Shown here one piece after another: positions 460-49,346 of a stretch of DNA of 64,000 nucleotides. The position numbers and the translations under genes were made by a program. Source of the stretch: a candidate division WS2 bacterium ADurb.Bin280 (GTDB lineage: Bacteria > Patescibacteriota > UBA1384 > DTJR01); NCBI GenBank assembly GCA_002071685.1, contig MWBO01000008.1, positions 333 through 64,332 on the forward strand, in the 5' to 3' direction. Positions within the stretch are counted from its first letter, which is position 1, and the number at the start of each line of letters is the position of its first letter. The notes under the pieces are model-generated. The model was not told the origin of the DNA, did not search any database, and saw only the letters and a program-made list of their open reading frames with translations.

Positions 460-468
460 CATCAAAAC

Positions 469-497
469 GGGGGCACCGATCTTGGGTCGGTGCCCCC
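469..497 (+). terminator. GC-rich hairpin GGGGGCACCGA-(7 nt loop)-TCGGTGCCCCC followed by TTCGCATTTTAT
   Basis: 11-bp perfect inverted repeat 10 nt after the stop of the GC-rich ORF. The GC-to-AT transition occurs here. Confidence 0.5.
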
Positions 498-563
498 TTC
501 GCATTTTATACAAAGACAGCTTGAAAAATTTTTGCTAAAATCATTATAAAAAAGGAGGGAGAT

Positions 564-725: not shown

Positions 726-727
726 AA

Positions 728-1009: not shown

Positions 1010-1034
1010 ACGGCTCACTCAAATGAGCCGTTTA
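1007..1034. repeat. palindromic hairpin element, copy 1 (A8-TAAACGGCTCA-CTCAAA-TGAGCCGTTTA-TTTC); likely a bidirectional intrinsic terminator
   Basis: The same 11-bp stem recurs at 45385-45412 and 54869-54896. A decayed copy sits at 44220-44245. All copies lie at gene 3' ends. Confidence 0.6.
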
Positions 1035-1044
1035 TTTCAAGCCA

Positions 1045-1674: not shown

Positions 1675-2032
1675 TCCATTGAACGAAGAAGAGAGGAGAA
1701 TCATTGAGGAAAAGGGAACGGAACCACCCTTCTCAGGTAAATACAACGACTTTTTCAAGGAAGGTGTCTTTGTCTGCAAAAGATGCTCAAATCCTCTCTT
1801 TTCTTCACAAGCAAAGTTCAAGTCATCCTGTGGCTGGCCCTCATTTGATGAATATTTTGAGGGGGCAGCGAGAGAGGTTCCAGACAGCGACGGAATCCGT
1901 ACAGAGATCGTTTGCAACAAGTGTTTGGCACATCTAGGACATGTTTTTCGTGGCGAAAATTTTACGCCAAAAAACACTCGACATTGTGTTAATTCGCTTT
2001 CGATTAAATTTATCCCAGAATTAAAGGGTTGA
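1661..2032 (+). CDS. msrB: peptide methionine-R-sulfoxide reductase MsrB
   Basis: CKRCSNPLF...SSCGWPSF...CNKCLAHLGHVF: two CxxC pairs and the conserved GWPSF/HLGHVF motifs. Confidence 0.85.
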   Translation: MMKINPLNEEERRIIEEKGTEPPFSGKYNDFFKEGVFVCKRCSNPLFSSQAKFKSSCGWPSFDEYFEGAAREVPDSDGIRTEIVCNKCLAHLGHVFRGENFTPKNTRHCVNSLSIKFIPELKG

Positions 2033-2067
2033 ATTATTTTCAATGATCGTTAAAATTTAGAAAAATA

Positions 2068-3381: not shown

Positions 3382-3393
3382 TTAATTTAAAAA

Positions 3394-4680: not shown

Positions 4681-5169
4681 ATGAAAAAAGACACTGCAAT
4701 ATTTGCCTCGGGATGTTTTTGGGGAACACAATATTATCTCTCAAAAGCGGTCGGTGTTGTCAAAACCCAAGTCGGATACACAGGAGGGGAGCTAGAAAGC
4801 CCTACTTACGAACAAGTTTGCTCTGGTAAAACTGGTCATGTTGAGGCGGTAAAAGTTGAGTATGATCCAGATAAAACAAATTACGAGAATTTATCGAAAC
4901 TCTTCTTTGAAACTCACGACTTTTCTCAAAAAGGCGGTCAGGGGCCGGACATCGGGAGTCAATACGAATCGGTCATCTTTTATGCCAACAATCAAGAGAA
5001 AAAAATTGCCCAAGTACTCATTAATGAGCTTGAAAACAGGGGAATGAAAGTCGCAACAAAAATAGCACCGAGAAAGGAATTTTATGTTGCGGAAGAATAT
5101 CATCAAGATTATTATTTGAAAAACCAGCAAACGCCCTATTGTCATAGATACAGAAAACTCTTTTCCTAG
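4681..5169 (+). CDS. msrA: peptide methionine-S-sulfoxide reductase MsrA
   Basis: ASGCFWGTQYY active-site motif. Confidence 0.85.
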   Translation: MKKDTAIFASGCFWGTQYYLSKAVGVVKTQVGYTGGELESPTYEQVCSGKTGHVEAVKVEYDPDKTNYENLSKLFFETHDFSQKGGQGPDIGSQYESVIFYANNQEKKIAQVLINELENRGMKVATKIAPRKEFYVAEEYHQDYYLKNQQTPYCHRYRKLFS

Positions 5170-5176
5170 ATAGCGC

Positions 5177-5205
5177 CTTGACTTGAGGCCTCAAATCTGT
5201 TATGA
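5177..5205 (+). promoter_or_regulatory. sigma70-like promoter for typA: TTGACT-17 nt-TATGAT
   Basis: -35 at 5177-5182 and -10 at 5200-5205. The spacer contains the palindrome TGAGGCCTCA. Confidence 0.5.
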
Positions 5206-5245
5206 TTTGTTTTTTGTATCAAGCAAAACATTAAAAAATTGGTAA

Positions 5246-7054
5246 ATGGAAATTAGAAACGTCGCCATAATTGCTCACGTTGATCACGGAAAAACATCTC
5301 TGGTAGATGGATTTTTAAAGCAAACCGAAACATTTCGAGAAAACGAAGCTATTATGGATGAAACGCTGATAATGGACTCAAATGACCAAGAGAGGGAACG
5401 GGGAATTACTATTTTGGCCAAAAATACCTCTGTAATATACAACCAAACAAAAATCAATATCATAGACACCCCGGGACACGCCGACTTCGGAGGAGAAGTT
5501 GAAAGAAGTCTAAATATGGCCGACGGAGCGATTTTGGTCATAGATGCTCAAGAGGGCCCCATGCCCCAAACCAAGTTTGTTTTAAAAAAAGCCTTTGAGC
5601 TTGGACTCAAGATAATGGTAGTGATCAATAAAATTGATAAAAAAAACGCCGACATAGAAAGGACTCTGGGTAGAACGTATGATCTTTTTTTGGAATTAGC
5701 TACCGACGAAAAACAGCTAGATTTTCCTATTTACTATGCAATCGCCAAAGAGGGTAAGGCATGGGATGAATTACCGGACAATATAAACGAAGAAAAGAAT
5801 TTATTAATAATCTTAGATGGAATTATTGAAAATATTCCCACGCCACAAACTGATGTCGAAGGCCCACTGCAAATGCTGGTTTCGGCCCTTGATTACGATA
5901 ATTACGTAGGAAAATATGCTGTGGGAAAGATTAAAAGAGGCAAGGTAAAAACCGGACAAAAAATTACTTTGGTCAAAGATGGTAACGTTGCTCAAAGCGG
6001 AAAAATTGAAAAGATATTTCAGAATTTTGGCGTCAAAAAAAGCGAAATTAACGAAGCTCTCTCTGGTGACATCGTAGCGATTGCCGGACTTTCGCAAGTG
6101 ATGATTTCAGATACGATTTGCGACGAAAATAAAATAGAACCTCTTGAAAGGCCGAAAATCGAAGAGCCAACCCTGCGACTTTCAATGTATACCAATACTT
6201 CTCCGTTTGCCGGCAAAGAGGGGAAATTCGTGACCGCGCGCGAATTGCTTGAACGTATTAGAAAAGAGCTTGAGACAAACGTGTCCATGAGACTAGAGAT
6301 TGATCAAAATGGTCGATACATTGTTAGTGGCCGTGGAGAACTCCACATTAGCGTTTTTGTCGAATCATTGCGTCGAGAGGGATATGAACTGGAACTTGGC
6401 AAACCGGAGGTGATTACCAAAGAGATAGAGGGTGTTGTTTGCGAACCGGTGGAAGAATTGACAATTGATGTAGATGACGAATATGCGAATCAAGTAATAA
6501 ACGAAGTTAACAGAAGAAAAGGATTGATGATCAGCCAGGATAAGATCTCCGGATCTACAAGACTTATTTTTGAAATATCGACGAGAGGAACGCTTGGGCT
6601 TAGAAATGTCTTGATAAGTGCATCGCGAGGAACAGCAGTAGTTAACTCAATATTTTTGAGATATCAAAAAATGGGCGAAAAACTTCCCAAGATCAGAAAT
6701 GGTGCTTTGATCGCTTACGAGCAAGGAAAAGCAGTCACATATGGACTAAACGCAGCCCAAGAAAGGGGAGTGATTTTTATTTCACCACAAACTCAAGTTT
6801 ACGAAGGTATGATCGTCGGGCTAAATAACAGAGAAAACGATCTCGAGGTAAATGTTTGCAAAGAGAAAAAACTAACAAATGTCAGGTCTTCAAACTCCGA
6901 TATATCAGTCGCTCTAACACCTCCAACAGTCCTTTCACTCGAACAATCGATCGATTTTCTAGAAGACGACGAACTTCTTGAGGTCACGCCGTCATCCTTG
7001 CGCCTTAGAAAGAAAATTTTGAAAAATCAGGAAAGATACAAAAGTAAAAAATGA
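5246..7054 (+). CDS. typA: translational GTPase TypA/BipA
   Basis: G1 AHVDHGKTS and G3 DTPGHADF at the N-terminus. Length 602 aa, with EF-G-like domains. Confidence 0.9.
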   Translation: MEIRNVAIIAHVDHGKTSLVDGFLKQTETFRENEAIMDETLIMDSNDQERERGITILAKNTSVIYNQTKINIIDTPGHADFGGEVERSLNMADGAILVIDAQEGPMPQTKFVLKKAFELGLKIMVVINKIDKKNADIERTLGRTYDLFLELATDEKQLDFPIYYAIAKEGKAWDELPDNINEEKNLLIILDGIIENIPTPQTDVEGPLQMLVSALDYDNYVGKYAVGKIKRGKVKTGQKITLVKDGNVAQSGKIEKIFQNFGVKKSEINEALSGDIVAIAGLSQVMISDTICDENKIEPLERPKIEEPTLRLSMYTNTSPFAGKEGKFVTARELLERIRKELETNVSMRLEIDQNGRYIVSGRGELHISVFVESLRREGYELELGKPEVITKEIEGVVCEPVEELTIDVDDEYANQVINEVNRRKGLMISQDKISGSTRLIFEISTRGTLGLRNVLISASRGTAVVNSIFLRYQKMGEKLPKIRNGALIAYEQGKAVTYGLNAAQERGVIFISPQTQVYEGMIVGLNNRENDLEVNVCKEKKLTNVRSSNSDISVALTPPTVLSLEQSIDFLEDDELLEVTPSSLRLRKKILKNQERYKSKK

Positions 7055-7105
7055 ATCAGGGCGCCCGATACCTTGGTGTGGTACCGGACGCCCCGAGAGA
7101 ACCAC

Positions 7106-7423
7106 TCAGGGAGTGGGCTGGGGCACGACCTGCTTGCCGATCTTCAGGTTGAACTGTGCCACAGGACCGATCTCGGCAAGCACAGCACTCGCCTGGAACT
7201 TTTGGCGCATTCCCGGATTGCCCTCCACCTCGCAGGCGTAAACTATGCCCGCTTCCATGTCTCGGGCGAAGCGCGAGGGTATGAACACCTCGGGGAGAGT
7301 GCCGGGAAGGGGGTTACAGACCTTTCCCCCCGTGGTTATGTACGCAACCACCACTCCGAACGCCACCCCCTGACTCGTCGAGCCACGAACCCAAACGCAA
7401 GCATTGACCGGCATTCCAATCAC
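7106..7423 (-). CDS. hypothetical small protein (105 aa) encoded in a high-GC island
   Basis: SD AGGGAG lies 9 nt upstream of the ATG. The opposite-strand ORF 7073..7465 reads as low-complexity R/H-rich and is taken as a shadow. Confidence 0.35.
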   Translation of the reverse strand: MIGMPVNACVWVRGSTSQGVAFGVVVAYITTGGKVCNPLPGTLPEVFIPSRFARDMEAGIVYACEVEGNPGMRQKFQASAVLAEIGPVAQFNLKIGKQVVPQPTP

Positions 7424-7543
7424 TCCCTAGTCATATTGATCGCCCAAGCGATCAAAAAACCATAGCAAATAATTGCAAAAAATCAATCTTTATAAAGCAA
7501 AATTTTTAATTTATAGTTAATTTAATATTTAAGCGGGGGAAAA

Positions 7544-8317
7544 ATGAAAATAGGGATTGCACTTAGCGGCGGGGGAGTTCTCGGAGCGGCACACATCGGC
7601 GCATTGAAAGAGATAGAAAAAGCCAACATTAAGATCGAATATGTTTGTGGTGCCTCTGCCGGATCGATCATCGGCGGGATCTACAGTAGTTCGGGAATAG
7701 AAGGACTGGAAGAATTTTATAACGAGATCAGCAATAAAAAGGGATTTTCGCCAAATACAAGATTTCAAATCCAATCTCCCTCAAGATTTTTTAGCGAGCT
7801 TGAAAACACCGTCTCAAAATATCTGGAGCCAAAAATAGACAGACCACAAATACCATTTGGAGCAGTAGCGACAAATCTAGAAACCGGATTGCCAGAGCTT
7901 CTTCAAGAGGGAGATAAATTAAAAAATATTATGGCCTCCTGCGCTTATCCCGGAGTATTTCCGATAGTAAGAATCTCTTCGAAACTCTATGTGGACGGAG
8001 GTATCGCTGTAAATTTACCGGCAGAGTTTGTCAAAAATGAATGTGATTTCACAATCGGCTCAAGCATTTATTCATTGCCAAAAATTAAAAAATCATATTT
8101 TGATAAAAATTCCAGAACTAGAGTGCTCTCAAGGTCGTTGGAAATTATCGAAAACCGCTTGAGTTATTATCAAGAAAATTATTGCGACTTCTGCTTCAAG
8201 CCGCAGATAAAAAATCTCAAGTGGTTTCATTTCTGGAAACTCCAAGAAGCGCGGGACGCAGGAGAAGCTAATGCGAAAAAACAAATAAACGATCTGGTGC
8301 AGTTGCTAAATAGATAA
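7544..8317 (+). CDS. patatin-like phospholipase
   Basis: GGGVLGAAHIG oxyanion-hole motif and GASAG (GxSxG) nucleophile motif. Confidence 0.8.
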   Translation: MKIGIALSGGGVLGAAHIGALKEIEKANIKIEYVCGASAGSIIGGIYSSSGIEGLEEFYNEISNKKGFSPNTRFQIQSPSRFFSELENTVSKYLEPKIDRPQIPFGAVATNLETGLPELLQEGDKLKNIMASCAYPGVFPIVRISSKLYVDGGIAVNLPAEFVKNECDFTIGSSIYSLPKIKKSYFDKNSRTRVLSRSLEIIENRLSYYQENYCDFCFKPQIKNLKWFHFWKLQEARDAGEANAKKQINDLVQLLNR

Positions 8318-9298: not shown

Positions 9299-11683
9299 AT
9301 GAAATATTTTCCCAAATCATCACTAACCGCGCTCTCATTAATAATTTTGAGCGTGGCGATCTCCGGATGCAACGGCCTGAATTCTGAAGAAAATACAAAG
9401 ACAAATACAACAAAAATCAATAATCAATTTTATTACGGTGAGCAAACAAACGGATTGATGCAAATTAAATCCGCGCCCTTGGCATCTACTAATAAAATTT
9501 CAAAGTTGCTGAAAAATCTTTATGTCGATGCTTCAAAAGTTGAATCCGGCGAGACGGTTATGCAAATTGATAGTACCGGTAAAGCGATCAAAGTCTTGCC
9601 CGATGGAAGCCTTATTGTTGCCACAAACTTGAATGAGCACAAAAGTGCTGAGTCTATATCCATTTTTAATACAAAAAATAGCAAACTCGAAAATATCTAC
9701 AAACCCAAAGACAATTTTTTGATTGATGATTTTATCATAAATCCTTCGGGTAATTTAATAGCAACCTGGGAAGTTAAAAAATCACCCAAGGGCAAATTAC
9801 TAGGAGGCGAATCGAGGGTGATGGAAATAGATTTAAAGACCAATGAAATAGAAGAGATCATTCCCATCCAAAGGCTCGAAGGTGACATGAACCAAGACGA
9901 CACCAGCCTGGCACAGTATTTTGTAAGTTCGCAAGTTTGCCTTCAGCACCCAATTTTCTACGATAATAGCGACAGCATCTATCTCGACACCTTTTGTCCC
10001 AACACAATCGAAGGAACTGGATGGGGGGCGGGAATTCATGTAATAAAACATAAGAGTAAAAACGCTCAGAAATCACAAATGTTTGAAATAGGCAATTATT
10101 CATACAGACCGAGTATTTCATCCGATGGAAAAAAGATTGCTGTTGTACGGCCTAAAAACAGAAAATTTTCAACCCTAGAGGCATCGTGGGAGGCCCAGCA
10201 AAACCCAGACAGTCTTTATGTGGTTGATGTTGTTTCGGGGGAAGAAACACTCCTTTTTGAATCAGATGACACAAAAATTTCGGCCCAACCAGTAATTTCT
10301 AACGATGGTAAATACATTGGAATAACCACATTTGGAACAAATTCCGGAGAAGAAAAGGCCATCGCCCTTAACACACAGACTAAGAAAAGGATAAATATCA
10401 ATGTGTCAGCAGAAATGAAGCCGTGTTGTTTTGACGATGACAATTATCTCGTCTTTGCCCATTACGATTCAACTAATGCCGCGGGCATTTCTTATATGGG
10501 AGATGCGCCAAATTCATTTTTGGCCAGTACAATTAATTACGTCAACCCCAAAACTGGCAAGATTGAAAAGGAAGCGGACTTTCCAGACAACGATCCACCA
10601 AATGGCGAGATTATCCCAACATTAAATAAAAACTCGGAAAAAATTGAAGGATCATTAAATGCTCCGGCGGAAGGCGCTTCGAAAAAGAGTAGCTCAAATC
10701 AACAACAAATCATCGCATGGATGCCTGATGAGTCGCAAATAGCTTCTGAGAAAAAAGCCCAAATTTTTCATGAAAGTTTTACCAATAATGACTGCACAGA
10801 CAATTGTAAAAAAACGGTCGATCCTAACTCGCTAGATCCGGACTCATGCCCTCAAGACGTCAGAAATCCCGAAGCATGCGAAGTAGTAGAACTCCCTGAC
10901 GGAAGAATAGTTAAACTAAGTACATATTCGAAGCCTACGGGAGAGATCGATCCAGTTACCGGATTTGAGATAGCTACGCCATCAGAGTTGATGAAGTGGA
11001 AGTGGGAGCACTCCAAAGAAATGACCCTGGACCAGTGCAACAGGTGGATCAAATCGATCGGAGGAGTTAACACTTTTGAGAAAAGCAAAAAAAATCCCGA
11101 GATCTGGAAATTGACTTATGAAAATGCCCAGTATTTCAATTGCTTTGACTCTCCGCTTTATTTGTACCCGAAAGAAAAAAAGACTGTAAAAATTGAATCT
11201 GAAAATATAATTTTCAATACCTATCCGAAAACTGAAACTAACGGCTGGACCGTTGAGGCAAAACCCGACGGAACAATTATTCACCAAAATGAAAAGTATA
11301 ATTCAATTAAGTATGACTATAAGGGGATGCACACAACTCCCCCAAAAAATGGAGTCGTGGTAAGAAAAGAACAGCTGAGTAACTCACTAAGAACTTACGC
11401 AAATAATCTGGGACTTAATAAAACTGAGAGCGACGAATTTGTAATGTTTTTTACTAAAAAGCTCTCAAACTTGGGTCCATATATTCAAATTTCTCATTAT
11501 AATATGGGCGATTCAGAAAAAATTCTTAATCTAAAAATTGAACCAAAACCAGATACATTCATACCAATCGTTATGTACTTTAGGGAAATCTCAACACCAC
11601 TGTCTCTAAAAGAACCAACTTTTGACGATATACCGGAAAGAACAGGATTCACCGTTGTTGACTGGAGTGGAAAAATTGAGTAG
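9299..11683 (+). CDS. large lipoprotein with TolB-like beta-propeller repeats and a Cys-rich module
   Basis: Lipobox AISGC. Repeated S(S/N)DGKKIA / SNDGKYIGI blades. A C-x-C-rich segment NNDCTDNCKK...DSCPQDVRNPEACE. Confidence 0.6.
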   Translation: MKYFPKSSLTALSLIILSVAISGCNGLNSEENTKTNTTKINNQFYYGEQTNGLMQIKSAPLASTNKISKLLKNLYVDASKVESGETVMQIDSTGKAIKVLPDGSLIVATNLNEHKSAESISIFNTKNSKLENIYKPKDNFLIDDFIINPSGNLIATWEVKKSPKGKLLGGESRVMEIDLKTNEIEEIIPIQRLEGDMNQDDTSLAQYFVSSQVCLQHPIFYDNSDSIYLDTFCPNTIEGTGWGAGIHVIKHKSKNAQKSQMFEIGNYSYRPSISSDGKKIAVVRPKNRKFSTLEASWEAQQNPDSLYVVDVVSGEETLLFESDDTKISAQPVISNDGKYIGITTFGTNSGEEKAIALNTQTKKRININVSAEMKPCCFDDDNYLVFAHYDSTNAAGISYMGDAPNSFLASTINYVNPKTGKIEKEADFPDNDPPNGEIIPTLNKNSEKIEGSLNAPAEGASKKSSSNQQQIIAWMPDESQIASEKKAQIFHESFTNNDCTDNCKKTVDPNSLDPDSCPQDVRNPEACEVVELPDGRIVKLSTYSKPTGEIDPVTGFEIATPSELMKWKWEHSKEMTLDQCNRWIKSIGGVNTFEKSKKNPEIWKLTYENAQYFNCFDSPLYLYPKEKKTVKIESENIIFNTYPKTETNGWTVEAKPDGTIIHQNEKYNSIKYDYKGMHTTPPKNGVVVRKEQLSNSLRTYANNLGLNKTESDEFVMFFTKKLSNLGPYIQISHYNMGDSEKILNLKIEPKPDTFIPIVMYFREISTPLSLKEPTFDDIPERTGFTVVDWSGKIE

Positions 11684-11929: not shown

Positions 11930-13261
11930 ATGAGAAAAGAAGCTTCTGACATTGTTGCCAAATTACAACGCGAGGGCTTTTTGGCCTATTTTGCGGGGGG
12001 CTATGTTAGAGATTTACTGATGAAAAGAGAAAGTAGTGACATTGATATTGCCACTTCAGCTAAACCCGATGATGTAAAAAGAATATTTACAAAAACGATA
12101 GATAAGGCGCAAAAATTCGGCACCATCATCGTAATACAGGGCTCTCATCAATTCGAGGTAACGACATTTAGAAACGAAGCTATTTATCTTGATGGCAGGC
12201 GACCGTCACAAGTCAGTTTTACAAACGCCAGAGAAGATGCCCGAAGAAGGGATTTCACCATAAACGGTATTTTTTATGATCCGATAAAAGGCAATTTCAT
12301 TGATTACGTCGGAGGGATCGATGATGTAAAAAAAAGGGTAATCTCTTTTATAGGAAATGCGACAAATAGAATAAACGAAGACAAGCTCCGGCTAATCCGC
12401 GCCGTTCGCTTAAAAATAGTTTTGAATTTTCAATACAAAGACGAAACTTTTCAGGCAATCAAAAGAAATGCCAAAAAAATTCAATGCGTATCCGCGGAGA
12501 GAATCAGGGAGGAGGTAAATAAGATATTACAAAGCAAAAGCAGACACCTAGGGCTGGTTGAGTTATCCCAATCGGGTATCTTAAAATACATACTGCCAGA
12601 GGTCGAAAGATTGAAGGGCGTACCCCAGCCATACGAGTATCATCATGAGGGAGATTGTTTTACCCACATCTATCTTGCCTTAAAATCCTTAAGGCAAGAT
12701 GCCCCTCTTGAAGTTTGCTGGGGTGTTTTGCTTCACGACATAGCAAAACCGCAAACTCTTAAAAAAATAAATGGAAAGATCACTTTCAATGATCACGCCT
12801 CACAATCCTCAGATCTAGCAAGAAAGATATTGCAAAGATTTAAATTTAGCAAAAAATTTATCGAGGACGTATGTTATATTATCAGGTACCACATGTCTAT
12901 CGGACAGATAGAGCAAATGAAACCAAGCAAAAAAGTTGACTTTCTATTAAATGAAAGATTTGAATTGCTTCTAGAGCTTACGGAGGCAGATTCAAAGGGA
13001 ACATATCCGGTAAATCTGGAAATGGTAGCTGCTATGAAAAGATTTAACAAAATGGCTAGATTACAGGTCGATATCACCAAGCATTTAAAAGATGAACCAA
13101 AATTAATAAACGGAAACGATCTAAAAGAAATCGAACATATCGAGCAGAAAAAGTATGGAGAAATTTTGGAAGAAGTTTATGATTTACAAATCGAAGGAAA
13201 GTTAAAAACAAAAGAAGAAGCAATCAGTTTTATAAAGGATAAATACATAAATGGACAATAA
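11930..13261 (+). CDS. cca: CCA-adding tRNA nucleotidyltransferase with an HD domain
   Basis: GGYVRDLLM...DIDIAT polymerase-beta head, RDFTINGIFYDP, and HHEGDCFTH...LLHDIAK HD motif. Confidence 0.8.
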   Translation: MRKEASDIVAKLQREGFLAYFAGGYVRDLLMKRESSDIDIATSAKPDDVKRIFTKTIDKAQKFGTIIVIQGSHQFEVTTFRNEAIYLDGRRPSQVSFTNAREDARRRDFTINGIFYDPIKGNFIDYVGGIDDVKKRVISFIGNATNRINEDKLRLIRAVRLKIVLNFQYKDETFQAIKRNAKKIQCVSAERIREEVNKILQSKSRHLGLVELSQSGILKYILPEVERLKGVPQPYEYHHEGDCFTHIYLALKSLRQDAPLEVCWGVLLHDIAKPQTLKKINGKITFNDHASQSSDLARKILQRFKFSKKFIEDVCYIIRYHMSIGQIEQMKPSKKVDFLLNERFELLLELTEADSKGTYPVNLEMVAAMKRFNKMARLQVDITKHLKDEPKLINGNDLKEIEHIEQKKYGEILEEVYDLQIEGKLKTKEEAISFIKDKYINGQ

Positions 13262-41614: not shown

Positions 41615-42763
41615 ATGGACAATACGATAATCTACATCGCCATAACATCATTTGTTGCAGCAATTGCAGGAATTTTGTTATCAAATTTCTTCGTCAAAAG
41701 AGCACAAAAAAACGGTAGCATTGACGACGAGCTTTTGGAAAACAAAATCTCCAGAATTTCATCCGAAGCACTGGATAAAAATTCCCAGAGATTTTTATTG
41801 ATGGCAAAAGAAATTCTAAACAGTCAAAAAACAGAAATAAAAACCGACCTTGAAGGAAAAAAATCCGCCATCAACGAGTTAATTGCCGAAATAAGAAGAG
41901 ACATCAGAAAAAATGAGGAGAGACTGTCACGCTCCGACGAAGAGAGAGTCAGATCCTTCACCGCACTGCAAAACGAGCTCGAAAGCTACAAAAAAATCAC
42001 CGGAGAGCTCAAAATCTCTGCAGACAAACTGAAGAATTTGCTGGCAAACAATCAGTGGCGAGGAGCGTTTGGAGAGCAAATAGCCGAGAACCTTTTAAAA
42101 ATGGCCGGATTTGTAATAGGCACGGACTACACGCGAAACGAAAAACAGACCACCGAGAACACCCGCCCCGACTTCACAATATTTTTACCTGATCAAACTA
42201 AGATAAACGTTGATGTTAAATTTCCCTACGCCTCTCTCGTCAGAACTATCGAGTCGGAAAACGCAGATGAAAAGAAGAAGCATTTCCAAACCTTCAAGCA
42301 AGATGTAAAAAACAAGATCAAGCAAGTTTGTACAAGAGAATACATTAACCCATCAGAGAAAACGGTCGACTTCGTAATCCTTTTCATCCCCAACGAAATG
42401 ATTTTTAGCTACATTTACGACTCTATGAATGATGTCTGGGAAGAGGCAATGAGAAAAAAAGTTGTTTTAGCCGGCCCATTTAGCTTCACGGCAATCCTAA
42501 GAATGATTAAGCAAGCATACTCAAATTTCAGATACCAGGAGAACCTCCAGCACATCATCACTCTCATCCAAAAGTTTGACAATGAGTATGAAAAATTTTC
42601 CCAAGAATTTGATAAATTGGGAGAAAGAATCAACTCGACAAGCCGACAATACGAATCAGTTGCGACGACTAGAAATCGCCAATTAACGTCCGTTGTGGAT
42701 AAAATAAAGTCACAAAACATTTCGGACAGCAGCTCTATAGAAGATATTAAAGAGCTGGCCTAA
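41615..42763 (+). CDS. rmuC: DNA recombination protein RmuC
   Basis: N-terminal TM/coiled-coil followed by an RmuC nuclease-like C-terminal domain. Confidence 0.75.
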   Translation: MDNTIIYIAITSFVAAIAGILLSNFFVKRAQKNGSIDDELLENKISRISSEALDKNSQRFLLMAKEILNSQKTEIKTDLEGKKSAINELIAEIRRDIRKNEERLSRSDEERVRSFTALQNELESYKKITGELKISADKLKNLLANNQWRGAFGEQIAENLLKMAGFVIGTDYTRNEKQTTENTRPDFTIFLPDQTKINVDVKFPYASLVRTIESENADEKKKHFQTFKQDVKNKIKQVCTREYINPSEKTVDFVILFIPNEMIFSYIYDSMNDVWEEAMRKKVVLAGPFSFTAILRMIKQAYSNFRYQENLQHIITLIQKFDNEYEKFSQEFDKLGERINSTSRQYESVATTRNRQLTSVVDKIKSQNISDSSSIEDIKELA

Positions 42764-42766
42764 TAA

Positions 42767-43501
42767 ATGGAAATAAAAAAACTCTACGAAGAAGACGACC
42801 TTTTGGTAATTTCAAAACCGATTGGAATTGCTGCTCACAAAGGAGCGGACAAAGTTTCTTTTACAGTTTCAGACTGGCTTGTTGATGAGTATGAGCAAAT
42901 AAAAAAACTTAACTGGCAAACCAAAAATCGCATCGGCATAGTTCATCGATTAGACAAAGATACATCCGGAGTAATGATTCTTGCCAAAAAACCCGACATG
43001 ATCAAAATTCTCCAAGATCAGTTTCGCCAAAGAGAAGTCGAAAAACACTACCTGACTTTGGTTTATGGAAAAATGCCCTTTGAAAAAGGATCGATCAGCG
43101 CCCAAATTTATACAAATCCGAAAAATCGAAAAGGACAAAAGGTAGAGCTGATAGACTTTGGAATCTACAACTTCAAGAGAAGATTTTCAGCAACAGAATA
43201 TCAAGAAATTAAAGTTTATAAATACAAGAAGGAACTATTGAGTTTGCTTGAAATAAATTTGAAAACCGGAAGAAAGCACCAAATTAGAGCACATATGAAG
43301 TTTGAAAATCGGCCCGTCATCGGTGACCAAATGTATTTCAACAAACCTTCAAAAAGACTTTCCAAGGAGCTTCAAATTCAAAGACAGTTTCTACATTCCT
43401 GTTATATAAAATTTAAGAATCGAAAGGGCGAGGAAATGGTTGTAAGGGACGAGCTAAGAGACGATTTGCAAGAAGTGCTGCAAAAACTGGAGGAGGTGTA
43501 A
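42767..43501 (+). CDS. RluA-family pseudouridine synthase
   Basis: HRLDKDTSGVMILAK catalytic Asp motif. Confidence 0.8.
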   Translation: MEIKKLYEEDDLLVISKPIGIAAHKGADKVSFTVSDWLVDEYEQIKKLNWQTKNRIGIVHRLDKDTSGVMILAKKPDMIKILQDQFRQREVEKHYLTLVYGKMPFEKGSISAQIYTNPKNRKGQKVELIDFGIYNFKRRFSATEYQEIKVYKYKKELLSLLEINLKTGRKHQIRAHMKFENRPVIGDQMYFNKPSKRLSKELQIQRQFLHSCYIKFKNRKGEEMVVRDELRDDLQEVLQKLEEV

Positions 43502-44229
43502 TGGATTGGTTTGAAAAAATTAAAAAACCGATCATCGCTCTTGCGCCGATGCACGGATATACCTACAGCGAGTTTAGACAAAAATGTGCCAAGGCGGGCG
43601 CTGATGCCGTCTACAGTGAGATGGTCGCAAGTGAAGCGATTATTCGCGACGTCCCACAAGCAATGGAGATGCTCGGATTTGAACAAAACGAAAGACCGGT
43701 GATTTTGCAAATTTTTGGATCAAATAGCGAGGTCATGGCAAAAGCGGCACAAATTATCGAGGAGAGATTTTCTCCGGATGGAATTGACATTAATTTCGGC
43801 TGTCCAGTACAGAAGGCGGCAAAGCAAGGATTTGGATCTTGCCAGCTAGCTGATGATAGCGAAGCGGCAAAAATAGTCAAAGCTGTTTGTAGCGCCACCA
43901 GTATTGCTGTCAGCGTGAAAATGCGCTTGGTCAGTTTTGATGCTAACGAAAACATTGATTTCATAAAAAAAATGCACCAAGCTGGGGCAAGATTATTTTC
44001 AGTTCACGGCAGAATAAGAACACAGAAATATCGCGGTCACGCCGATTGGAATTTGCTTAGAAAAATAAAACAGGGTTGTGGCGACATCCCAATTCTAGGA
44101 AGCGGAGATGTCGATAGTTTGCAGTTTTTGAAAGATAATCTTGGCAATTTAGATGGGGCATTAGTTGGTCGCGCTGCCAAACGCGATCCGGAAATATTCG
44201 GAGAGCTGGTAAAAATAAAAAACGATTAG
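43501..44229 (+). CDS. tRNA-dihydrouridine synthase (Dus family, short)
   Basis: LAPMHGYT, DINFGCPVQK and FMN-binding TIM-barrel motifs. Confidence 0.7.
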   Translation: MDWFEKIKKPIIALAPMHGYTYSEFRQKCAKAGADAVYSEMVASEAIIRDVPQAMEMLGFEQNERPVILQIFGSNSEVMAKAAQIIEERFSPDGIDINFGCPVQKAAKQGFGSCQLADDSEAAKIVKAVCSATSIAVSVKMRLVSFDANENIDFIKKMHQAGARLFSVHGRIRTQKYRGHADWNLLRKIKQGCGDIPILGSGDVDSLQFLKDNLGNLDGALVGRAAKRDPEIFGELVKIKND

Positions 44230-44245
44230 GCAATTGAGCAGTTTA
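44220..44245. repeat. decayed copy of the TAAACGGCTCA hairpin element (AAACGATTAG-GCAAT-TGAGCAGTTTA)
   Basis: The 3' arm and loop closely match copy 3 (CAATTGAGCCGTTTA), but the 5' arm has diverged. Confidence 0.4.
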
Positions 44246-44250
44246 AAAAT

Positions 44251-44329
44251 TATGAATGCAGAATGTAGAATTTTGAATCTAGCAAATTCAGAATTAAGAG
44301 TGCAGAATTAACAGTGATAAATTACGAAA
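44251..44329. repeat. tandem array of ~11 heptamers, consensus NNNGAAT (tatGAAT gcaGAAT gtaGAAT tttGAAT ... gcaGAAT ...)
   Basis: Strict 7-bp phasing of the GAAT cores, read directly from the sequence. A related array lies at 56645-56705. Confidence 0.5.
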
Positions 44330-44430
44330 AAAGATGATGTGCTAAATTCAAATTCCAAATTCCTAACTAATTAAAAATAAGCAAGGGCGCCGATTCCGGT
44401 GAAGGAACCGACGCCCCTGTGTCGGCAGTG

Positions 44431-45309
44431 TTAGAAGGCGGGCCCGGACGGGGGCCTTCTGACCACCTCCTCGTGCCCATCGTCGTAGACGACGGTGAAG
44501 AGAATCGGGGAGCTCGGCTCCCCATCAACGATCCGAACGACCCGAGGGCCGTCGGACCGAATGAAGACGATGGGAAACAACTTACCGGCGACATCCCCCA
44601 TCAGGATGGCGCTGTCGCCGGAGCGCAACTCCTCGGTCGGGAGGATCTCGATGCGCCGAGCACCCTCTCCGACCGTGTTGACACGCACGCCCATGGGGAC
44701 GTCCCAGAGAACGGGGACGTCAGGTGACCCGGGCCAACCGGGGTACCCCGTAGCGCCGTGGTCGATCCACGACACGTTAAGGACCACCGGCGCCGCGCTT
44801 GACAGTCGGGTGTCGGCGTAGAAGCCGTCACCCGAGCGGGTGGCGCCTTGGACGAAGATCTCCAGCTTGTCAGGCTGGATCCTCGTCGTGATGACGTGGG
44901 CCGACCAGACCGTCTGGTCGGCAACCTCGGCATAGACGTTGCACTGCCACGAGGACAGTGCAGTCAGACGCCACCGCCCGGGCGACAAGCGCTCAAGCGA
45001 GAGCGCTTCCGCCGGAACGGCGAAGAGCGTGACCGGCCGGCTGGGAAGGTCCCCGCGGACCTCCCAGATCTGCTGGCCGATCACCTCTACATCCCCATCC
45101 GGCTGAGCCGGAATGGGGTGCGAAACGACAACGTCGTCCGGCACCGTCGCGGGGGTGAACCCTTCGCCGGAACAACCGGCGAGGATAACGACCAGCATGA
45201 CGGCCAAGGCCGCCGAAAACAACTTTTTCAATGTACTTCCTCCCTTCGAAGACGAATCTCCGAGGTTCGATTTCCGACGCGAATAGCGCCATGAGGAAAT
45301 CGTAACCAA
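44431..45309 (-). CDS. lipoprotein (292 aa) encoded by a high-GC (~65%) island
   Basis: Lipobox LAGCSG after a hydrophobic signal. The GC jump coincides exactly with the gene boundaries (44381-45310). The other long ORFs here, on both strands, are typical high-GC shadows. Confidence 0.55.
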   Translation of the reverse strand: MVTISSWRYSRRKSNLGDSSSKGGSTLKKLFSAALAVMLVVILAGCSGEGFTPATVPDDVVVSHPIPAQPDGDVEVIGQQIWEVRGDLPSRPVTLFAVPAEALSLERLSPGRWRLTALSSWQCNVYAEVADQTVWSAHVITTRIQPDKLEIFVQGATRSGDGFYADTRLSSAAPVVLNVSWIDHGATGYPGWPGSPDVPVLWDVPMGVRVNTVGEGARRIEILPTEELRSGDSAILMGDVAGKLFPIVFIRSDGPRVVRIVDGEPSSPILFTVVYDDGHEEVVRRPPSGPAF

Positions 45310-45384
45310 GTACTATAGCACAAAATTGCCAAAAAGTCAAGATCACCAGCGCTTTTAAAAAAGCGACATAAACTGCAAAAAAAA

Positions 45385-45412
45385 TAAACGGCTCAATCAA
45401 ATGAGCCGTTTA
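45385..45412. terminator. palindromic hairpin element, copy 2 (TAAACGGCTCA-ATCAAA-TGAGCCGTTTA); terminator for the minus-strand ATPase-ferredoxin operon
   Basis: On the minus strand the hairpin is followed by TTTATTTTTTTT. Copy 2 is nearly identical to copy 1 over ~38 nt. Confidence 0.65.
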
Positions 45413-45430
45413 TCTTCTGTTAAATTTAAA

Positions 45431-45610
45431 TTATTTCTCTATCTGTATCGCCTCTACCGGACAAGATTGAGCAACTTCTTCAAGGTTGCAATCGTCACAT
45501 TCTTGTTTTTTGACCTTGCTAATACCGTCAACCACCTCAAAACATTGCTCGCAAAGCGCCGCACAAGTACCGCAACCTATGCACCTCACCTCATCGACTG
45601 TAATTTTCAT
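45431..45610 (-). CDS. small 4Fe-4S ferredoxin (59 aa)
   Basis: Not in the ORF track. SD GGAGAG lies 5 nt before the ATG. Translation MKITVDEVRCIGCGTCAALCEQCFEVVDGISKVKKQECDDCNLEEVAQSCPVEAIQIEK carries CxxCxxC...CP. Confidence 0.7.
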   Translation of the reverse strand: MKITVDEVRCIGCGTCAALCEQCFEVVDGISKVKKQECDDCNLEEVAQSCPVEAIQIEK

Positions 45611-45636
45611 ATCTCTCCTCTGGAATTACTATTATT

Positions 45637-47901
45637 TTAAAGAATTGGAGCGGAAAAATTTTCTTCCTTGAGCTTTTCAAGGACTTCCATTTCTTTTGAT
45701 TTTTCTTTCTTGATCTCACCCTCCGCCTGCGTCTTGGACTGACAGTAATTTTCTCTAGAGTAGGCAATGATCTGTTCCTTAAAATTGAACGTCGGCTCTG
45801 GAATCGAAATTGTTTTGCCTGAAAATGCCTCTTTTACCTCATCATCTATCGATAACTTCAAGTATATTTCCCGAACGCCAAGATTGACGATATCGTTTGC
45901 GCCAAAGCGAGGAGAAAATTCTTTTTCGAGCAAGGCGGCATCCTCCGGACCTACCCTGAAAGCGATAATTGATCCGACATTTCCAAACACAGTGTTTCGA
46001 ATGGTGTCGCTAATTTGCGAAACGTACTGGTGAGCCAAGGACAGACTCAGTTTATACTTTCTGGCCTCCGACAAAATATTGGCAAAAGTATCTGTGGCAA
46101 AGTTTTGAAACTCGTCAACGTAGAGATAAAAAGGAACACGTTGACTTTCGGGCACCTCGGAGCGCGCCAAAGCACTTTGATAAATTTTGGTAATAATCAT
46201 CGCACCCAGAAGTGACGTATTCTCTTCTCCCAGAATTCCCTTGGGTAATTTAACCAGCAGAATTTTTTTATTATCCATCACATCCTGAACAGAAAAAGTG
46301 TTCTCTTCCTGTCCGACAATATTTCTAATAATTGTATTTGATACGAACTGACCAATTTTGTTCAAAATGGGCATGATCGCTTCACTATCAAATTTCTCGC
46401 TCCATCCGGCAAATTCATTGGTCCAGAAATTTTTAACTACCTGATCTTCGATAGATTTAATCGTGTCTTGCCTATATTCACGGTCGGTCAAAAGAAGCAA
46501 TATCGAGAGAACCGACGCCTTGGGAGCATCAAGAAGCGCTAAAATCGTCATTCTCATAACGTGCTCCAGTCGAGGAGTCCAGTTGGCGCCAAAGGCCTTT
46601 TTGAAGGTTTCTATAAGTCCGGTAGCAACTTGCTGACGATAAATCTTTTCCACTTTTTCAATCGGGTTAAACGAGATGGGATACTCTTCGTCAATCGGAT
46701 TGAAATAAATAACGCCTTTGACCCTCGATTCCGGAATGTAGGGAATGATGTTTTCCACCAAATCGCCGTGCGGATCTATTACACAGATACCGTGGCCGTT
46801 TTCGATGTCATTTTTGATGAGTAATTCTTGAAGTTTGGACTTTCCCGAACCTGATTTACCGATAGTGTACATGTGTCTAGCTCTGTCTCTCCTTTTTATT
46901 CCAAATACTTCTCTGATATTGCGATAGTTGGTGGTGGCAAAGGGACAAAGCTCTTCAGGCGAAGTATTGTCAACCGTTGGTAAGCCCAGAGGCGGTTCAG
47001 CTTTTGGAGAGAGAACTTTGTATAGGTTGGGTACCGAATCTGTATCTGTTGGAAAATGAAAAATTGTCGAAAGCTCGTCCGAGGAGAGATACATGGCGTT
47101 TTTTGAAAAACTAAGAGCTTTGACTTTCTGCAAACTCTCTTCGGTCAATTCGCTTACCGGATACTTGAATTCGTTATATTCGCTTTCCAGTTTATTGAAA
47201 ACTTGCGCTATCGGAGCAAGCTTTGCCTGCGCCGAAACATGACTGTCGCTATAGAGGATCATGTCAAGCTCGACTTGGTAGAGAAATTGTTTGTTTTTTT
47301 CGACAGCAGCGCCGACCGCTCTCGACCTCGTCTCTCCGGAAAGTTTTTTGTTAAAGATGTTTTCGACGACATTTAATCTCTGGCTTAAATTTTTATAGGC
47401 CAGATTGACCGATCTTTTTACCGAAAAAATTGCCTGATTGAAGTCAACAGGGGACACTTTTACTTGCAATACAAAACTGTCATAAGCCGTCAATCTATTG
47501 AGCTGATTATAAATATCCGCCAAGAAAGATCCTTCCATCTGATGAAAGACCAAGAAGGGGAATTGATCGCCATACTTGAGCTTGAGATTTGTATGGGCGG
47601 CATTTTCCACTTTGCCGAAGCTTATCTCCTTGGAAACCGTCTCTATTTCTATCTTGGGAAAAAGAGAATATAGCTGGTTTTCAAAGATACTGGCATAGCC
47701 CTCGCCGATCCTCGCTCCATAAAAAATCCTTTTTCCAATAACGTTAAGAGTAAAACAGAAGGGAACATTGGTCAGAATCTTATTGGAAGTTTTGATAAAT
47801 TCATAAAAGGTACCAATGTCAAACTTGGTATTCTGAGGAAGTTTGATGATGTATTCTCTGCTTTCGAAAAAGTCGTCCATAAATCCTTTATAATTTATCA
47901 T
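45637..47901 (-). CDS. P-loop ATPase of the HerA/FtsK/VirB4/TrwB superfamily with a ~330-aa N-terminal domain of unknown function
   Basis: Walker A GKSGSGKS, then VIDPHGDL, Walker B YLYVDEFQNF, and an AHQY/arginine-finger region. It is a paralog of 61826..>64000. Confidence 0.8.
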   Translation of the reverse strand: MINYKGFMDDFFESREYIIKLPQNTKFDIGTFYEFIKTSNKILTNVPFCFTLNVIGKRIFYGARIGEGYASIFENQLYSLFPKIEIETVSKEISFGKVENAAHTNLKLKYGDQFPFLVFHQMEGSFLADIYNQLNRLTAYDSFVLQVKVSPVDFNQAIFSVKRSVNLAYKNLSQRLNVVENIFNKKLSGETRSRAVGAAVEKNKQFLYQVELDMILYSDSHVSAQAKLAPIAQVFNKLESEYNEFKYPVSELTEESLQKVKALSFSKNAMYLSSDELSTIFHFPTDTDSVPNLYKVLSPKAEPPLGLPTVDNTSPEELCPFATTNYRNIREVFGIKRRDRARHMYTIGKSGSGKSKLQELLIKNDIENGHGICVIDPHGDLVENIIPYIPESRVKGVIYFNPIDEEYPISFNPIEKVEKIYRQQVATGLIETFKKAFGANWTPRLEHVMRMTILALLDAPKASVLSILLLLTDREYRQDTIKSIEDQVVKNFWTNEFAGWSEKFDSEAIMPILNKIGQFVSNTIIRNIVGQEENTFSVQDVMDNKKILLVKLPKGILGEENTSLLGAMIITKIYQSALARSEVPESQRVPFYLYVDEFQNFATDTFANILSEARKYKLSLSLAHQYVSQISDTIRNTVFGNVGSIIAFRVGPEDAALLEKEFSPRFGANDIVNLGVREIYLKLSIDDEVKEAFSGKTISIPEPTFNFKEQIIAYSRENYCQSKTQAEGEIKKEKSKEMEVLEKLKEENFSAPIL

Positions 47902-47971
47902 TTTTAGATAAACAAAACAATCAACCTTGACATAACCAGGGCCCCTGATATTTTTAAATTAAAGGAGGGGA

Positions 47972-48082
47972 ATGGCAAGCGAAATAAAAAACACCGGATT
48001 GCTATCGGCAATAGTTTTTGCCATTATAGTGATCATTTTGCTCATAATAGGACTTTTCACCCCATGGTTTCCGCAAATATAA
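47972..48082 (+). CDS. small hydrophobic peptide (36 aa, single TM)
   Basis: Not in the ORF track. SD AAAGGAGGGG lies 2 nt before the ATG. Translation MASEIKNTGLLSAIVFAIIVIILLIIGLFTPWFPQI. Divergent from the ATPase operon. Confidence 0.4.
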   Translation: MASEIKNTGLLSAIVFAIIVIILLIIGLFTPWFPQI

Positions 48083-48336
48083 AGCTCAAATATCATTCTC
48101 ACCCCATCAATGAATTTACGGAGATTGACAAGTATTTGATGGTGCCCAAAAAACTGCACGAGGATTTTCCCGAAGGCGAGATAGAAATCAGATTGCAAAA
48201 CAAGAAGTTTTCTACAAGAGTTTATGATATTTATTGTGAATGCACCGGTAGCAAACACATTCACAAGGTCATCGACTTAAGAAAATTTGAAGGAACAAAC
48301 GACTTTTCAGAGGGCGAGGAAATAGAGATCTCATGA
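48064..48336 (+). CDS. hypothetical protein (90 aa)
   Basis: Its stop overlaps the next start (ATGA). An alternative start is at M26. No motif recognised. Confidence 0.35.
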   Translation: MVSANIKLKYHSHPINEFTEIDKYLMVPKKLHEDFPEGEIEIRLQNKKFSTRVYDIYCECTGSKHIHKVIDLRKFEGTNDFSEGEEIEIS

Positions 48337-49346
48337 AACAAAAAATTTTGCTTATTCCATATGTAAAAAATGGGGAAGAAATTGTTTATTTTGTCGGAAA
48401 GAGAAAATTGAGTTTTGAGAAAGATGCTTCAAAGGAGATTTGGCAACTTCCAACAGGCAAAGTAGGCGACAACGTCGATGGCGAAAAGGTGATCGAGGCG
48501 GCGCTCCGCGAGTTTGAGGAAGAGCTCGGAGTAAAAAAATATAAAAATTTTATAAATCAAAATTATTTTTTTAATTGGAGCAAGGAGGGCGAACAAATCA
48601 GGGAATATGTTTTCGCGCTAGAGCTTGAAAATGAAAAAGTGAAAGTCTGCAAAAGGGAGTTTGAAAAATATGGCTTTTTTAATATCGATAGAGCAAAAAA
48701 AATTTTAAGTTACGACAACCATAAAAACTTTCTTGTCAGACTGGACGAAGACATCAGAACATCAAAATATCCCAAAATTTTTGTCATCTGCGGTCCCGGC
48801 GGGTGTGGGAAGGGTTCATTAATGGACCTGATCGAAGACAAAGCCAAAATCGAGCGCGCCAGAACAGCCACCACTAGAAGCAGGGGAGTCAGCGACAGCG
48901 ACAAGTGTCGGATATTTGTCAGCAAGGGTGATTTTGGGAGGATGAAAAAAAGGGGGCAATTTATCGAAACAAATTTTTTCAAGGGAAATTATTACGGATC
49001 TTTAAAAAGCGAGGTGGAGGGAAGATTTTTGGAGGGCAAAAGCGTCATGATTGAACTTGACTTAAATGGCCTTGAGCGAATAAAATCTATCTACTCAAAC
49101 GTTGTTTCAATTTTTATATACGCTGACTTAAAAACTCTTAAACAAAGAATGGAAAAAAGAGGACGAGACAGCGCAAAAGAAATCGAAAGAAGACTGAAAA
49201 TATCCCAAAGGGAACTTGAAAACTCCTCGCTTTGTGATTACATTATAAAAAATGAAGACGGCAAACTTAAAGAAGCCGCGAAAGAACTTATAAATATAAT
49301 AAACAAAAACACTGTCAAAAAGGAGAAAAATGAGTTCGCAAAATAA
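48333..49346 (+). CDS. NUDIX hydrolase fused to a guanylate-kinase-like P-loop kinase domain
   Basis: Nudix box GEKVIEAALREFEEELGV. Then GPGGCGKGS Walker A, TATTRSRG and an IFVSKGDF Gmk-like core. Confidence 0.6.
   Translation: MKQKILLIPYVKNGEEIVYFVGKRKLSFEKDASKEIWQLPTGKVGDNVDGEKVIEAALREFEEELGVKKYKNFINQNYFFNWSKEGEQIREYVFALELENEKVKVCKREFEKYGFFNIDRAKKILSYDNHKNFLVRLDEDIRTSKYPKIFVICGPGGCGKGSLMDLIEDKAKIERARTATTRSRGVSDSDKCRIFVSKGDFGRMKKRGQFIETNFFKGNYYGSLKSEVEGRFLEGKSVMIELDLNGLERIKSIYSNVVSIFIYADLKTLKQRMEKRGRDSAKEIERRLKISQRELENSSLCDYIIKNEDGKLKEAAKELINIINKNTVKKEKNEFAK

Follow-up and report, generated by a model that had tools for sequence, protein, structure and literature searches.

Does a sharp rise in guanine-cytosine (GC) content over one bacterial gene mark a recent arrival, or can it be a lasting property of the place where the gene sits? 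The question is raised by a lipoprotein gene in the genome of candidate division WS2 bacterium ADurb.Bin280, within the stretch of 64,000 nt (contig MWBO01000008.1, positions 333 to 64,332) that we analysed as a whole and call the window. The original prediction, made from the letters alone, had described here a high-GC island bracketing a minus-strand lipoprotein gene, next to what was taken for an insertion hot spot. Our analysis leads to a different reading, to which we give a probability of roughly two in three: the gene is a long-resident, strain-variable surface-protein cassette exchanged by recombination, and its high GC is maintained as a lasting trait of the locus.

A genuine single-gene island

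The cassette (44417-45296, 880 bp) has a GC content of 64.5%, with z = 9.0 against all other 880-bp windows of the 64-kb stretch (mean 40.1 ± 2.7%, highest 50.5%); the mean of the whole window is 40.5%. GC is 61-71% in every 100-bp window between ~44400 and 45200 and 28-35% within 50-100 bp on either side; a 150-bp scan delimits the island as 44345-45300, with 62.7% GC. The anomaly extends to the noncoding part of the unit, the 5′ untranslated region (UTR) of the cassette having 54-58% GC versus 32% in the adjoining conserved promoter DNA. In the minus-strand frame, GC at the first, second and third codon positions (GC1/2/3) is 0.66/0.48/0.82, compared with 0.47/0.35/0.40 (sd 0.03-0.04) in 35 host genes. 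The third positions of the gene are A 4.5%, C 45%, G 37% and T 14%, while A accounts for 33% in host genes. The codon adaptation index (CAI) referenced to the host was 0.595, ~10 standard deviations (SD) below the host genes (0.762 ± 0.017).

Much of what had been predicted for this island was thus borne out. The GC jump is real, its edges coincide with the limits of a transcription unit, and codon usage is radically unlike that of the host. The lipobox (LAGCSG) was confirmed, as was the host-like AT-rich promoter upstream, and the terminator of the ferredoxin gene, downstream of which the lipoprotein gene had been placed, was located at 45384-45413. Long overlapping open reading frames (ORFs) on both strands were seen as described, six of at least 100 aa if both strands are counted; the minus-strand frame alone has the codon periodicity of a high-GC gene, and it is singled out by this codon-position pattern and by its homologues. 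The predicted 292-aa product has to be shortened. The ORF of that length exists (44431..45309, minus strand), but its TTG at 45309 is 3 nt past the -10 hexamer, which puts it at, or even before, the predicted start of transcription, so that the usable start is the TTG at 45231, giving 266 aa. The annotation of GCA_022705485.1 also calls a 266-aa gene. We rejected the ATG start used by NCBI (255 aa, P0001), which would leave a signal peptide with just five hydrophobic residues.

The features of the unit, in window coordinates, are the following.

44417..45296, unstranded: strain-variable GC-rich cassette; the real extent of the anomaly, from GC (z = 9) and from mismatch and gap counts against a second strain (contig L006)
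45312..45340, minus: predicted sigma-70-type promoter, -35 TTGACT, 17-nt spacer, TG-extended -10 TATAGT; 10/12 consensus matches, in 32% GC DNA
45232..45296, minus: strain-variable 5′ UTR, ~70 nt, as read from the sequence; identity to L006 drops from 97% to 30-60% at 45297/45296
45239-45244, minus: Shine-Dalgarno sequence GGGAGG, 7 nt before the TTG start at 45231
44431..45231, minus: lipoprotein coding sequence, 266 aa, TTG start 45231, TAA stop 44431-44433; homologues at 32-64% identity, codon GC, and dN<dS in conserved segments
45172..45231, minus: lipoprotein signal peptide, MKKLFSAALAVMLVVILAG before Cys20, lipobox L-A-G-C; lipobox shared by relatives, modelled helix at residues 4-18
44884..45129, minus: N-terminal immunoglobulin-like (Ig-like) beta-sandwich domain, ~residues 35-116; AlphaFold2 (AF2) model with predicted local distance difference test (pLDDT) 85-97, Foldseek
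44557..44865, minus: second Ig-like beta-sandwich domain, ~residues 123-225, mostly strain-variable; AF2 fold and comparison with L006
44695..44769, minus: signature loop W-I-D-H-G-x-x-G-Y-P-G-W-P-G-x-P-x-V-P-V-L-W-x-V-P, residues 155-179; invariant or nearly invariant alignment columns
44434..44553, minus: C-terminal extension peculiar to this allele, residues 227-266; no homologue has it, and L006 shows a 120-bp gap
44372..44419, minus: intrinsic terminator, a T-run after a GC-rich hairpin of 16 bp (44419-44382); shared by the window and L006, identity resuming at 44416

As the genome is a metagenome-assembled genome (MAG), and as high-GC DNA gives long chance ORFs on both strands, one has to consider an assembly chimera, a contaminant fragment or a GC-rich non-coding RNA carrying a spurious ORF. 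We find such an artefact scarcely credible. Contig L006, from the independent run DRR381268, has the same AT-rich flanks, its own GC-rich version of the cassette and both junctions; since it comes from a different strain, it is independent evidence for both. The second MAG (GCA_022705485.1, L017; reads possibly shared) is 100% identical over 12,180 bp, both junctions included, and no separate contaminant contig carrying the island was seen, so that neither of the circumstances that the original prediction had named as fatal to the island was encountered. The protein family, moreover, with homologues at E-values of 1e-48 to 1e-108, has a conserved lipobox and signs of purifying selection. Rfam, run on the whole window at gathering thresholds, gave no match, and its E-value mode over 1-8000 and 44200-45450 gave sub-threshold noise only; the island is conserved at the protein level, unlike a structured non-coding RNA. 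The island is a genuine chromosomal single-gene transcription unit with a complete lipoprotein gene.

Most other contigs that carry the family are just 0.8-2 kb long, and a Logan contig from SRR17648133 (L018), 100% identical over window positions 45365-48852, stops 55 bp before the island. This suggests that assemblies break at the locus, through strain heterogeneity or GC-dependent coverage; the short carrier contigs and the end of L018 fit population heterogeneity at the locus.

Strain variation within the cassette

The comparison of strains is that of a single pair, the window and the 1.1-kb contig L006, which divides into three parts.

45458-45297: upstream flank (ferredoxin 3′ end, terminator, promoter), 4/162 mismatches (2.5%)
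45296-44417: cassette, 238/739 aligned columns mismatched (32%), plus 165 gap columns
44416-44283: downstream flank (terminator hairpin, spacer), 14/133 mismatches (10.5%)

Only a few bases from where transcription is predicted to start, identity falls away, and it recovers at the terminator hairpin; thus the boundary of divergence is also the boundary of GC; the promoter region itself is 97.5% identical in the two strains. Divergence inside the cassette is uneven. Nucleotide identity is 30-60% in the 5′ UTR and signal peptide, 80-97% in the N-domain and 27-80%, with indels, in the C-domain. Synonymous (dS) and non-synonymous (dN) divergence, calculated per segment by the Nei-Gojobori method, was dS 0.33 and dN 0.12 for the N-domain and dS >2 and dN 0.57 for the C-domain; in the signature loop the proportion of synonymous differences (pS) is saturated at 0.81 and dN is 0.11. 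Both the N-domain and the signature loop therefore have dN<dS. The C-terminal extension of 120 bp is present in the window allele only, and it has no similarity to anything in any retrieved locus, its source being undetected.

At neutral sites the cassette has diverged 10 to >50 times as much as the noncoding DNA beside it, a difference that protein-level selection is insufficient to produce. Either recombinational import of divergent allelic segments or a mutation rate locally raised by orders of magnitude is needed, and the block structure and the indels favour recombination. The most probable source of the variation is homologous recombination through the conserved flanks, which would move allelic segments under diversifying pressure on the exposed protein. 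Among more distant relatives, few and short as the sequences are, the allele identities are out of line with the grouping of Dus, the tRNA dihydrouridine synthase encoded next to the lipoprotein gene: the window and contig L014 are 61% identical in Dus and 28% in the lipoprotein, and the lipoprotein of a Berkelbacteria contig (L001) is 47% identical to that of the window.

A higher mutation rate could arise by targeted hypermutation of the transcribed cassette, through a diversity-generating retroelement (DGR) or an error-prone, GC-biased process coupled to transcription, which would raise divergence and GC alike. Both quantities do shift near the predicted transcription start and both stop at the terminator, and the synonymous sites and the noncoding 5′ UTR are hit as much as replacement sites. 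A gene for bAvd, a DGR accessory protein, lies ~4 kb from the Berkelbacteria homologue, and in a genome of the Gracilibacteria, a CPR (candidate phyla radiation) group, a surface-protein gene is reported to be hypervariable at the nucleotide level with a conserved protein sequence (PMC6851277). Still, we judge hypermutation to be highly improbable. The variation runs through the whole gene, in blocks and with indels, and is not that of an adenine-specific C-terminal repeat of ~100 bp. We know of no bacterial mechanism for GC-biased targeted hypermutation of one transcription unit. The candidate role of DGR target was rejected within the scope of the 64-kb window, where BLASTN with 7-nt words and a Y-x-D-D scan yielded no template repeat, no second copy of any part of the island and no reverse transcriptase motif in a plausible ORF.

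A small family in a conserved slot

A word-indexed search of 5.8 billion protein clusters found four proteins, and an exhaustive profile search with a hidden Markov model (HMM) over 1.84 billion representatives found 9 true relatives (E-values 5e-108 to 1.6e-10); three further profile matches were judged spurious, being repeat matches. The family signature comprises the lipobox (present in 9/9 full-length GC-rich members), two beta-sandwich domains, the motif WIDHGxxGYPGWPGxPxVPVLWxVP and GDVAGK near the C-terminus. The single named relative is from a Candidatus Berkelbacteria MAG (L001, JAPLVK010000005), which was also the only genome recovered by a protein-pattern scan of genome contigs. In metagenome contigs, a protein-pattern scan gave no relative, and the promoter sequence (29 nt) was not matched either; divergence within the 12-sequence alignment was too great for it to yield scan patterns. 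Our literature searches turned up nothing that describes the lipoprotein family, ADurb.Bin280 or GC-rich islands that persist in Patescibacteria. Judging from these sequences, we propose a new, very small and undescribed lipoprotein family of the ferredoxin-Dus slot, whose readable members are all in AT-richer contigs.

The slot beside Dus holds the lipoprotein gene in four lineages, represented by the window and contigs L011, L009 and L014. The order of ferredoxin gene, lipoprotein gene and convergent Dus gene is found in three of them (window, L011, L009), with the genes for the pseudouridine synthase RluA and for RmuC also shared by the window and L011. The arrangements outside the window are as follows (arrows mark the opposite orientation).

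L011: ferredoxin, 161-aa gene, lipoprotein, 124-aa gene, <-Dus, <-RluA, 211-aa gene, <-RmuC
L009: ferredoxin, lipoprotein, 121-aa gene, <-Dus
L014: lipoprotein, <-Dus, with an IS256-type transposase upstream

Compared with the window, identity is 67% for RmuC, 50% for RluA, 46-51% for Dus, 52-63% for ferredoxin and 32-40% for the lipoprotein; the Dus proteins of the slot-bearing lineages are 44-66% identical to one another. As the slot is shared although the neighbouring housekeeping proteins are just 44-67% identical, the gene must be an old resident and not a recent insertion. A second context, with a convergent PRC-barrel gene after the lipoprotein gene, is common to L001 and L010.

DNA context was retrieved for eleven loci of relatives, which fall into three groups by composition.

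Nine loci with readable flanks: gene GC 55-64%, GC3 62-83%, flanks or rest of contig 36-48% GC
L016: gene GC 64%, GC3 83%, flanks too short to judge (~61% GC); a frameshifted copy, followed by a terminator and then AT-rich DNA
L015 (P0012, the most distant relative, 22% identity, transmembrane-anchored): gene GC 41%, GC3 36%, flanks 43%, i.e. native composition

GC-rich genes are thus found at 10/11 of the loci, with AT-richer readable flanks at nine, and no family member was seen in a high-GC genomic context at the readable loci of the 1.84 billion representatives searched. The slot holds further small secreted-protein genes in L011 (9435-9920, 161 aa; 10816-11190, 124 aa) and in L009 (4616-4981, 121 aa). 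All three encode a signal peptide and have no Pfam match, and the 124-aa and 121-aa products are homologous (30-34% identity). In these genes GC3 is 50-74%, versus 25-46% for ferredoxin and Dus.

These data bear on the idea of a single recent transfer from a high-GC lineage, with actinobacteria as the suggested donor, into a hot spot. The anomaly in composition and codon usage is certainly strong, and the Pro/Val/Asp/Gly-rich character ascribed to the protein was confirmed (it is rich in Val, Gly, Pro, Ala and Asp), but neither the word-indexed nor the exhaustive HMM search found an actinobacterial or other high-GC homologue, and of ~10 relatives none is in a high-GC genome. Synteny contradicts such a transfer too, as orthologues occupy the same slot in lineages with deeply diverged Dus, and the GC contrast is repeated at nine other loci. 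A genomic island would be expected to have a matching donor lineage and an empty site in relatives or mobility flanks; all readable relatives are in AT-richer contigs and the gene is present in L011, L009 and L014. The window locus has no flanking direct repeats or mobility genes, and the window contains no tRNA or tmRNA. We therefore consider this transfer very improbable, and with the same slot found beside Dus in four lineages the hot spot is unsupported. An integron-like cassette was considered as well and rejected: there is no attC-type site or integrase, and the 3′ hairpin is an ordinary terminator in the conserved flank.

Some observations on the other loci may be recorded here. Contig L015, of 43% GC, carries a further single-gene GC island at 12309-12749 (65% GC; a 146-aa ORF with no Pfam match). 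In L001 (136-1254, 5860-6249, 6536-7991) the bAvd gene stands beside a 1343-aa ORF, and there are further GC islands of 58-65%, whose products are a secreted protein of 296 aa that contains a collagen-like stretch, GPRGPWGPSG, and a Pro/Gln-rich protein of 118 aa. In L014 a lipobox-bearing N-terminal fragment (27-224), an IS256-family transposase (173-1093) and a lipoprotein copy without signal peptide (1331-1945) follow one another, which looks like a transposase insertion that split the lipoprotein gene.

The protein and its fold

The product read from the TTG at 45231 begins with MKKLFSAALAVMLVVILAG followed by CSG, and so has a positive n-region, a hydrophobic h-region and a lipobox of the form [LVI][ASTVI][GAS]C, the three elements that we looked for. 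By these signals it is a candidate substrate of Lgt and LspA: cleavage would take place at Cys20, and a lipid anchor would hold the protein to the cell membrane on its outer face. Cys20 would be followed by a short linker rich in Pro and then by two Ig-like beta-sandwich domains, the second bearing the conserved aromatic loop.

The structure was modelled by AF2 with the 12-sequence alignment (pLDDT 83.6, predicted template-modelling score 0.70), in place of an earlier run on a 4-sequence alignment that gave pLDDT 53. The model shows a signal helix and a pair of beta-sandwich domains, followed by a small C-terminal extension specific to this allele, with three short strands (pLDDT 73-78). Foldseek against the PDB returned 251 matches at E<=0.001, all of them tandem Ig-like proteins (filamin, titin, the S-layer proteins SbsC and Sap, the adhesins FdeC, InvE and LigA), with the best E ~1e-6 and TM-scores of only 0.2-0.4; predicted viral structures gave Ig-like matches only, including phage Ig-like decorations. 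The model thus assigns the protein to the Ig-like beta-sandwich fold class. Pfam had no family at E<=0.1 for the window protein except a noise match to DUF7537, and no Big_* family; PDB and NCBI-style sequence family searches gave no match to it. One relative, P0003, matches Big_5 (0.0057) and Dockerin_1 (2e-07), both confined to its extra N-terminal part. An architecture of this kind would be that of a cell-surface binding or adhesion protein, and the product is probably a lipid-anchored protein of that sort.

What may keep the GC high

High GC is a property of the slot in every lineage, and it reaches the 5′ UTR and the other secreted-protein genes. For this reason we take it to be upheld at the level of the locus, and not to be the trace of a recent import that has yet to ameliorate. 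Acquired genes lose their atypical GC and codon usage over time, decaying towards the host in the amelioration model of Lawrence and Ochman. The identity of the neighbouring proteins is so low that synonymous sites must have been saturated many times over, and a gene acquired before the lineages split should have lost the GC3 of its donor.

The same pattern could be produced if each copy were young, that is, if the slot were repeatedly refilled by xenologous replacement, its alleles being drawn from a GC-rich reservoir that has escaped sampling, for example GC-richer relatives, phages or other mobile DNA of these, or the cells on which the bacteria live. GC1/2/3 and the third-position bases of the gene do resemble those of a gene equilibrated in a ~65% GC genome; the departure of the allele identities from the Dus grouping, the IS256-type transposase beside the L014 gene and the orphan status of the other two GC islands of the window (below) point the same way, and gene transfers in Patescibacteria are reported to occur mostly within the group (PMC12455944). 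We nevertheless think replacement unlikely, since the reservoir fails to appear: among 1.84 billion representatives no family member was found in a high-GC context, and the sole member of native composition (L015) is in an AT-richer genome of ~43% GC. A replacement limited exactly to the interval between conserved promoter and terminator would also need homologous flanks, which a foreign donor would lack, and the borders show neither an integrase nor an att or cassette recombination site.

If high GC is maintained, as in the reading that we prefer, something has to maintain it. Recombination rate and GC are positively linked in most bacterial species, the cause being debated (PMC11879095). A GC-favouring effect of frequent recombination between divergent alleles, by biased repair or by more effective selection for GC, is our leading guess, speculative and more probably wrong than right. 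That a locus-specific GC-favouring process of any sort holds GC3 at ~80% in ~40% GC genomes over deep time is a claim we regard as doubtful. If it were true, the process could be GC-biased repair in recombination or a GC-biased targeted mutator, and the same process may yield the other single-gene GC-rich orphan islands of the genome.

Several points weigh against the preferred reading. The strain mosaic is drawn from one pair, the window and a 1.1-kb contig, and the function is read from the fold class only, with low TM-scores and no characterised specific homologue. The more conserved N-domain is as GC-rich as the hypervariable C-domain, and so GC does not track local divergence within the gene. 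The effects of recombination on GC reported in bacteria are small, and to our knowledge no 40-point shift in GC3 at one locus has been documented in bacteria. The two other GC-rich single-gene islands are absolute orphans, and an origin by import, out of a gene pool that has not been sampled, would suit them just as well. Lastly, biased gene conversion as a driver is argued against in the study cited above (PMC11879095).

These two islands are as follows. The first (window 1-526, 59.7% GC) corresponds to the 3′ part of the gene BWY43_00098 (P0016; a product of 202 aa without signal peptide; GC1/2/3 0.63/0.45/0.75), whose ORF extends past the window start and whose stop, at 457-459, is followed by a GC-rich terminator hairpin at ~466-500 and then AT-rich DNA; among 5.8 billion protein clusters it matched only itself. 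The second (7026-7459, 57% GC) lies between typA/bipA and a patatin-like gene, has no Rfam match, E-value mode included, and contains BWY43_00107 (P0017, 102 aa), an absolute orphan with its ORF at 7106-7414 on the minus strand, opposite to its neighbours.

Comparison with known systems

In fold the protein is closest to the Ig-like (Big) surface proteins FdeC, InvE, LigA, SbsC and Sap, its top structural matches, with which it shares tandem beta-sandwich Ig-like domains. Unlike these Big-domain proteins it has no Pfam Big_* or PDB sequence match, and the TM-scores stay at 0.2-0.4. It is small (266 aa) and lipid-anchored, neither a giant autotransporter nor an S-layer lattice protein; its relative P0003 adds Big_5 and dockerin modules.

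In behaviour it recalls the recombining, host-interacting surface lipoprotein loci reported in Borrelia (PMC11389397) and the hypervariable gene of the Gracilibacteria genome (PMC6851277): a single locus, for an exposed lipoprotein or anchored protein, sets otherwise near-identical strains strongly apart, and its nucleotides have diverged more than selection on the protein alone would explain. It differs from both in three respects: the unit is a single cassette between conserved promoter and terminator, there is no paralogue or archive of silent cassettes within the window, and the cassette is 25 GC points above the genome, which is not a feature of those systems.

With classical genomic islands the locus shares the sharp compositional break at gene boundaries and the deviant codon usage. 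It is unlike them in having no mobility genes, tRNA or att sites, or donor, and in that four lineages, though deeply diverged, have all kept its GC contrast, where amelioration would predict the opposite. DGRs are common in CPR bacteria, as Paul et al. reportedly found in 2017, and with DGR variable proteins the locus has in common that hypervariability is localised to one gene, whose product is a surface or binding protein, with bAvd near the Berkelbacteria homologue. The differences are the lack of a template repeat and reverse transcriptase in the window, the gene-wide variation with indels where DGRs have an adenine-specific C-terminal repeat, and the fold, Ig-like here and C-type lectin in DGR variable proteins.

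Neighbouring genes and the spacer

The genes around the slot in the window are listed below.

45431..45610, minus: ferredoxin, 59-aa 4Fe-4S protein (Pfam Fer4_13, 1.4e-08), with its own terminator; also in L011 and L009
43501..44229, plus: Dus, convergent, downstream (Pfam Dus, 7.8e-58)
42767-43501: RluA-type pseudouridine synthase, preceding Dus
41615-42763: RmuC, preceding RluA
45637-47901, minus: VirD4/TraG/TrwB-like coupling-protein ATPase, 754 aa (TrwB_AAD_bind 1.5e-09, TraG-D_C), directly upstream of the ferredoxin gene

In place of the ATPase gene, L011 and L009 have an unrelated divergent gene of 364-380 aa. The spacer between the convergent Dus and lipoprotein genes (44230-44381) has 26% GC and short inverted repeats; at this position L011 and L009 hold the ~122-aa secreted-protein gene that the window is without. 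The heptamer array noted earlier consists of four copies of KYAGAAT at 44258-44308, a motif that is unenriched in the window (29 occurrences versus 54 expected).

Implications

The lipoprotein gene is ordinary as genes go; what is unusual and unexplained is its composition. Recent horizontal transfer is the routine reading of atypical GC, and the locus is a clean counter-example: the high-GC signature is kept at synonymous and noncoding sites, in a slot conserved across long-diverged lineages, and the gene is also the only segment by which near-identical strains are told apart. If the effect is linked to recombination, the locus would offer a natural test, of unusual sharpness, for the disputed hypotheses of GC-biased gene conversion and of selection for GC in bacteria.

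The host bacteria appear, from their gene content, to be small-genomed. For such uncultured bacteria the undescribed family of surface lipoproteins is a candidate determinant of interactions between cells or with phages. If a GC-favouring process does act at these loci, the slots would generate, in symbiotic bacteria of ultra-small size, surface and orphan genes that evolve fast.

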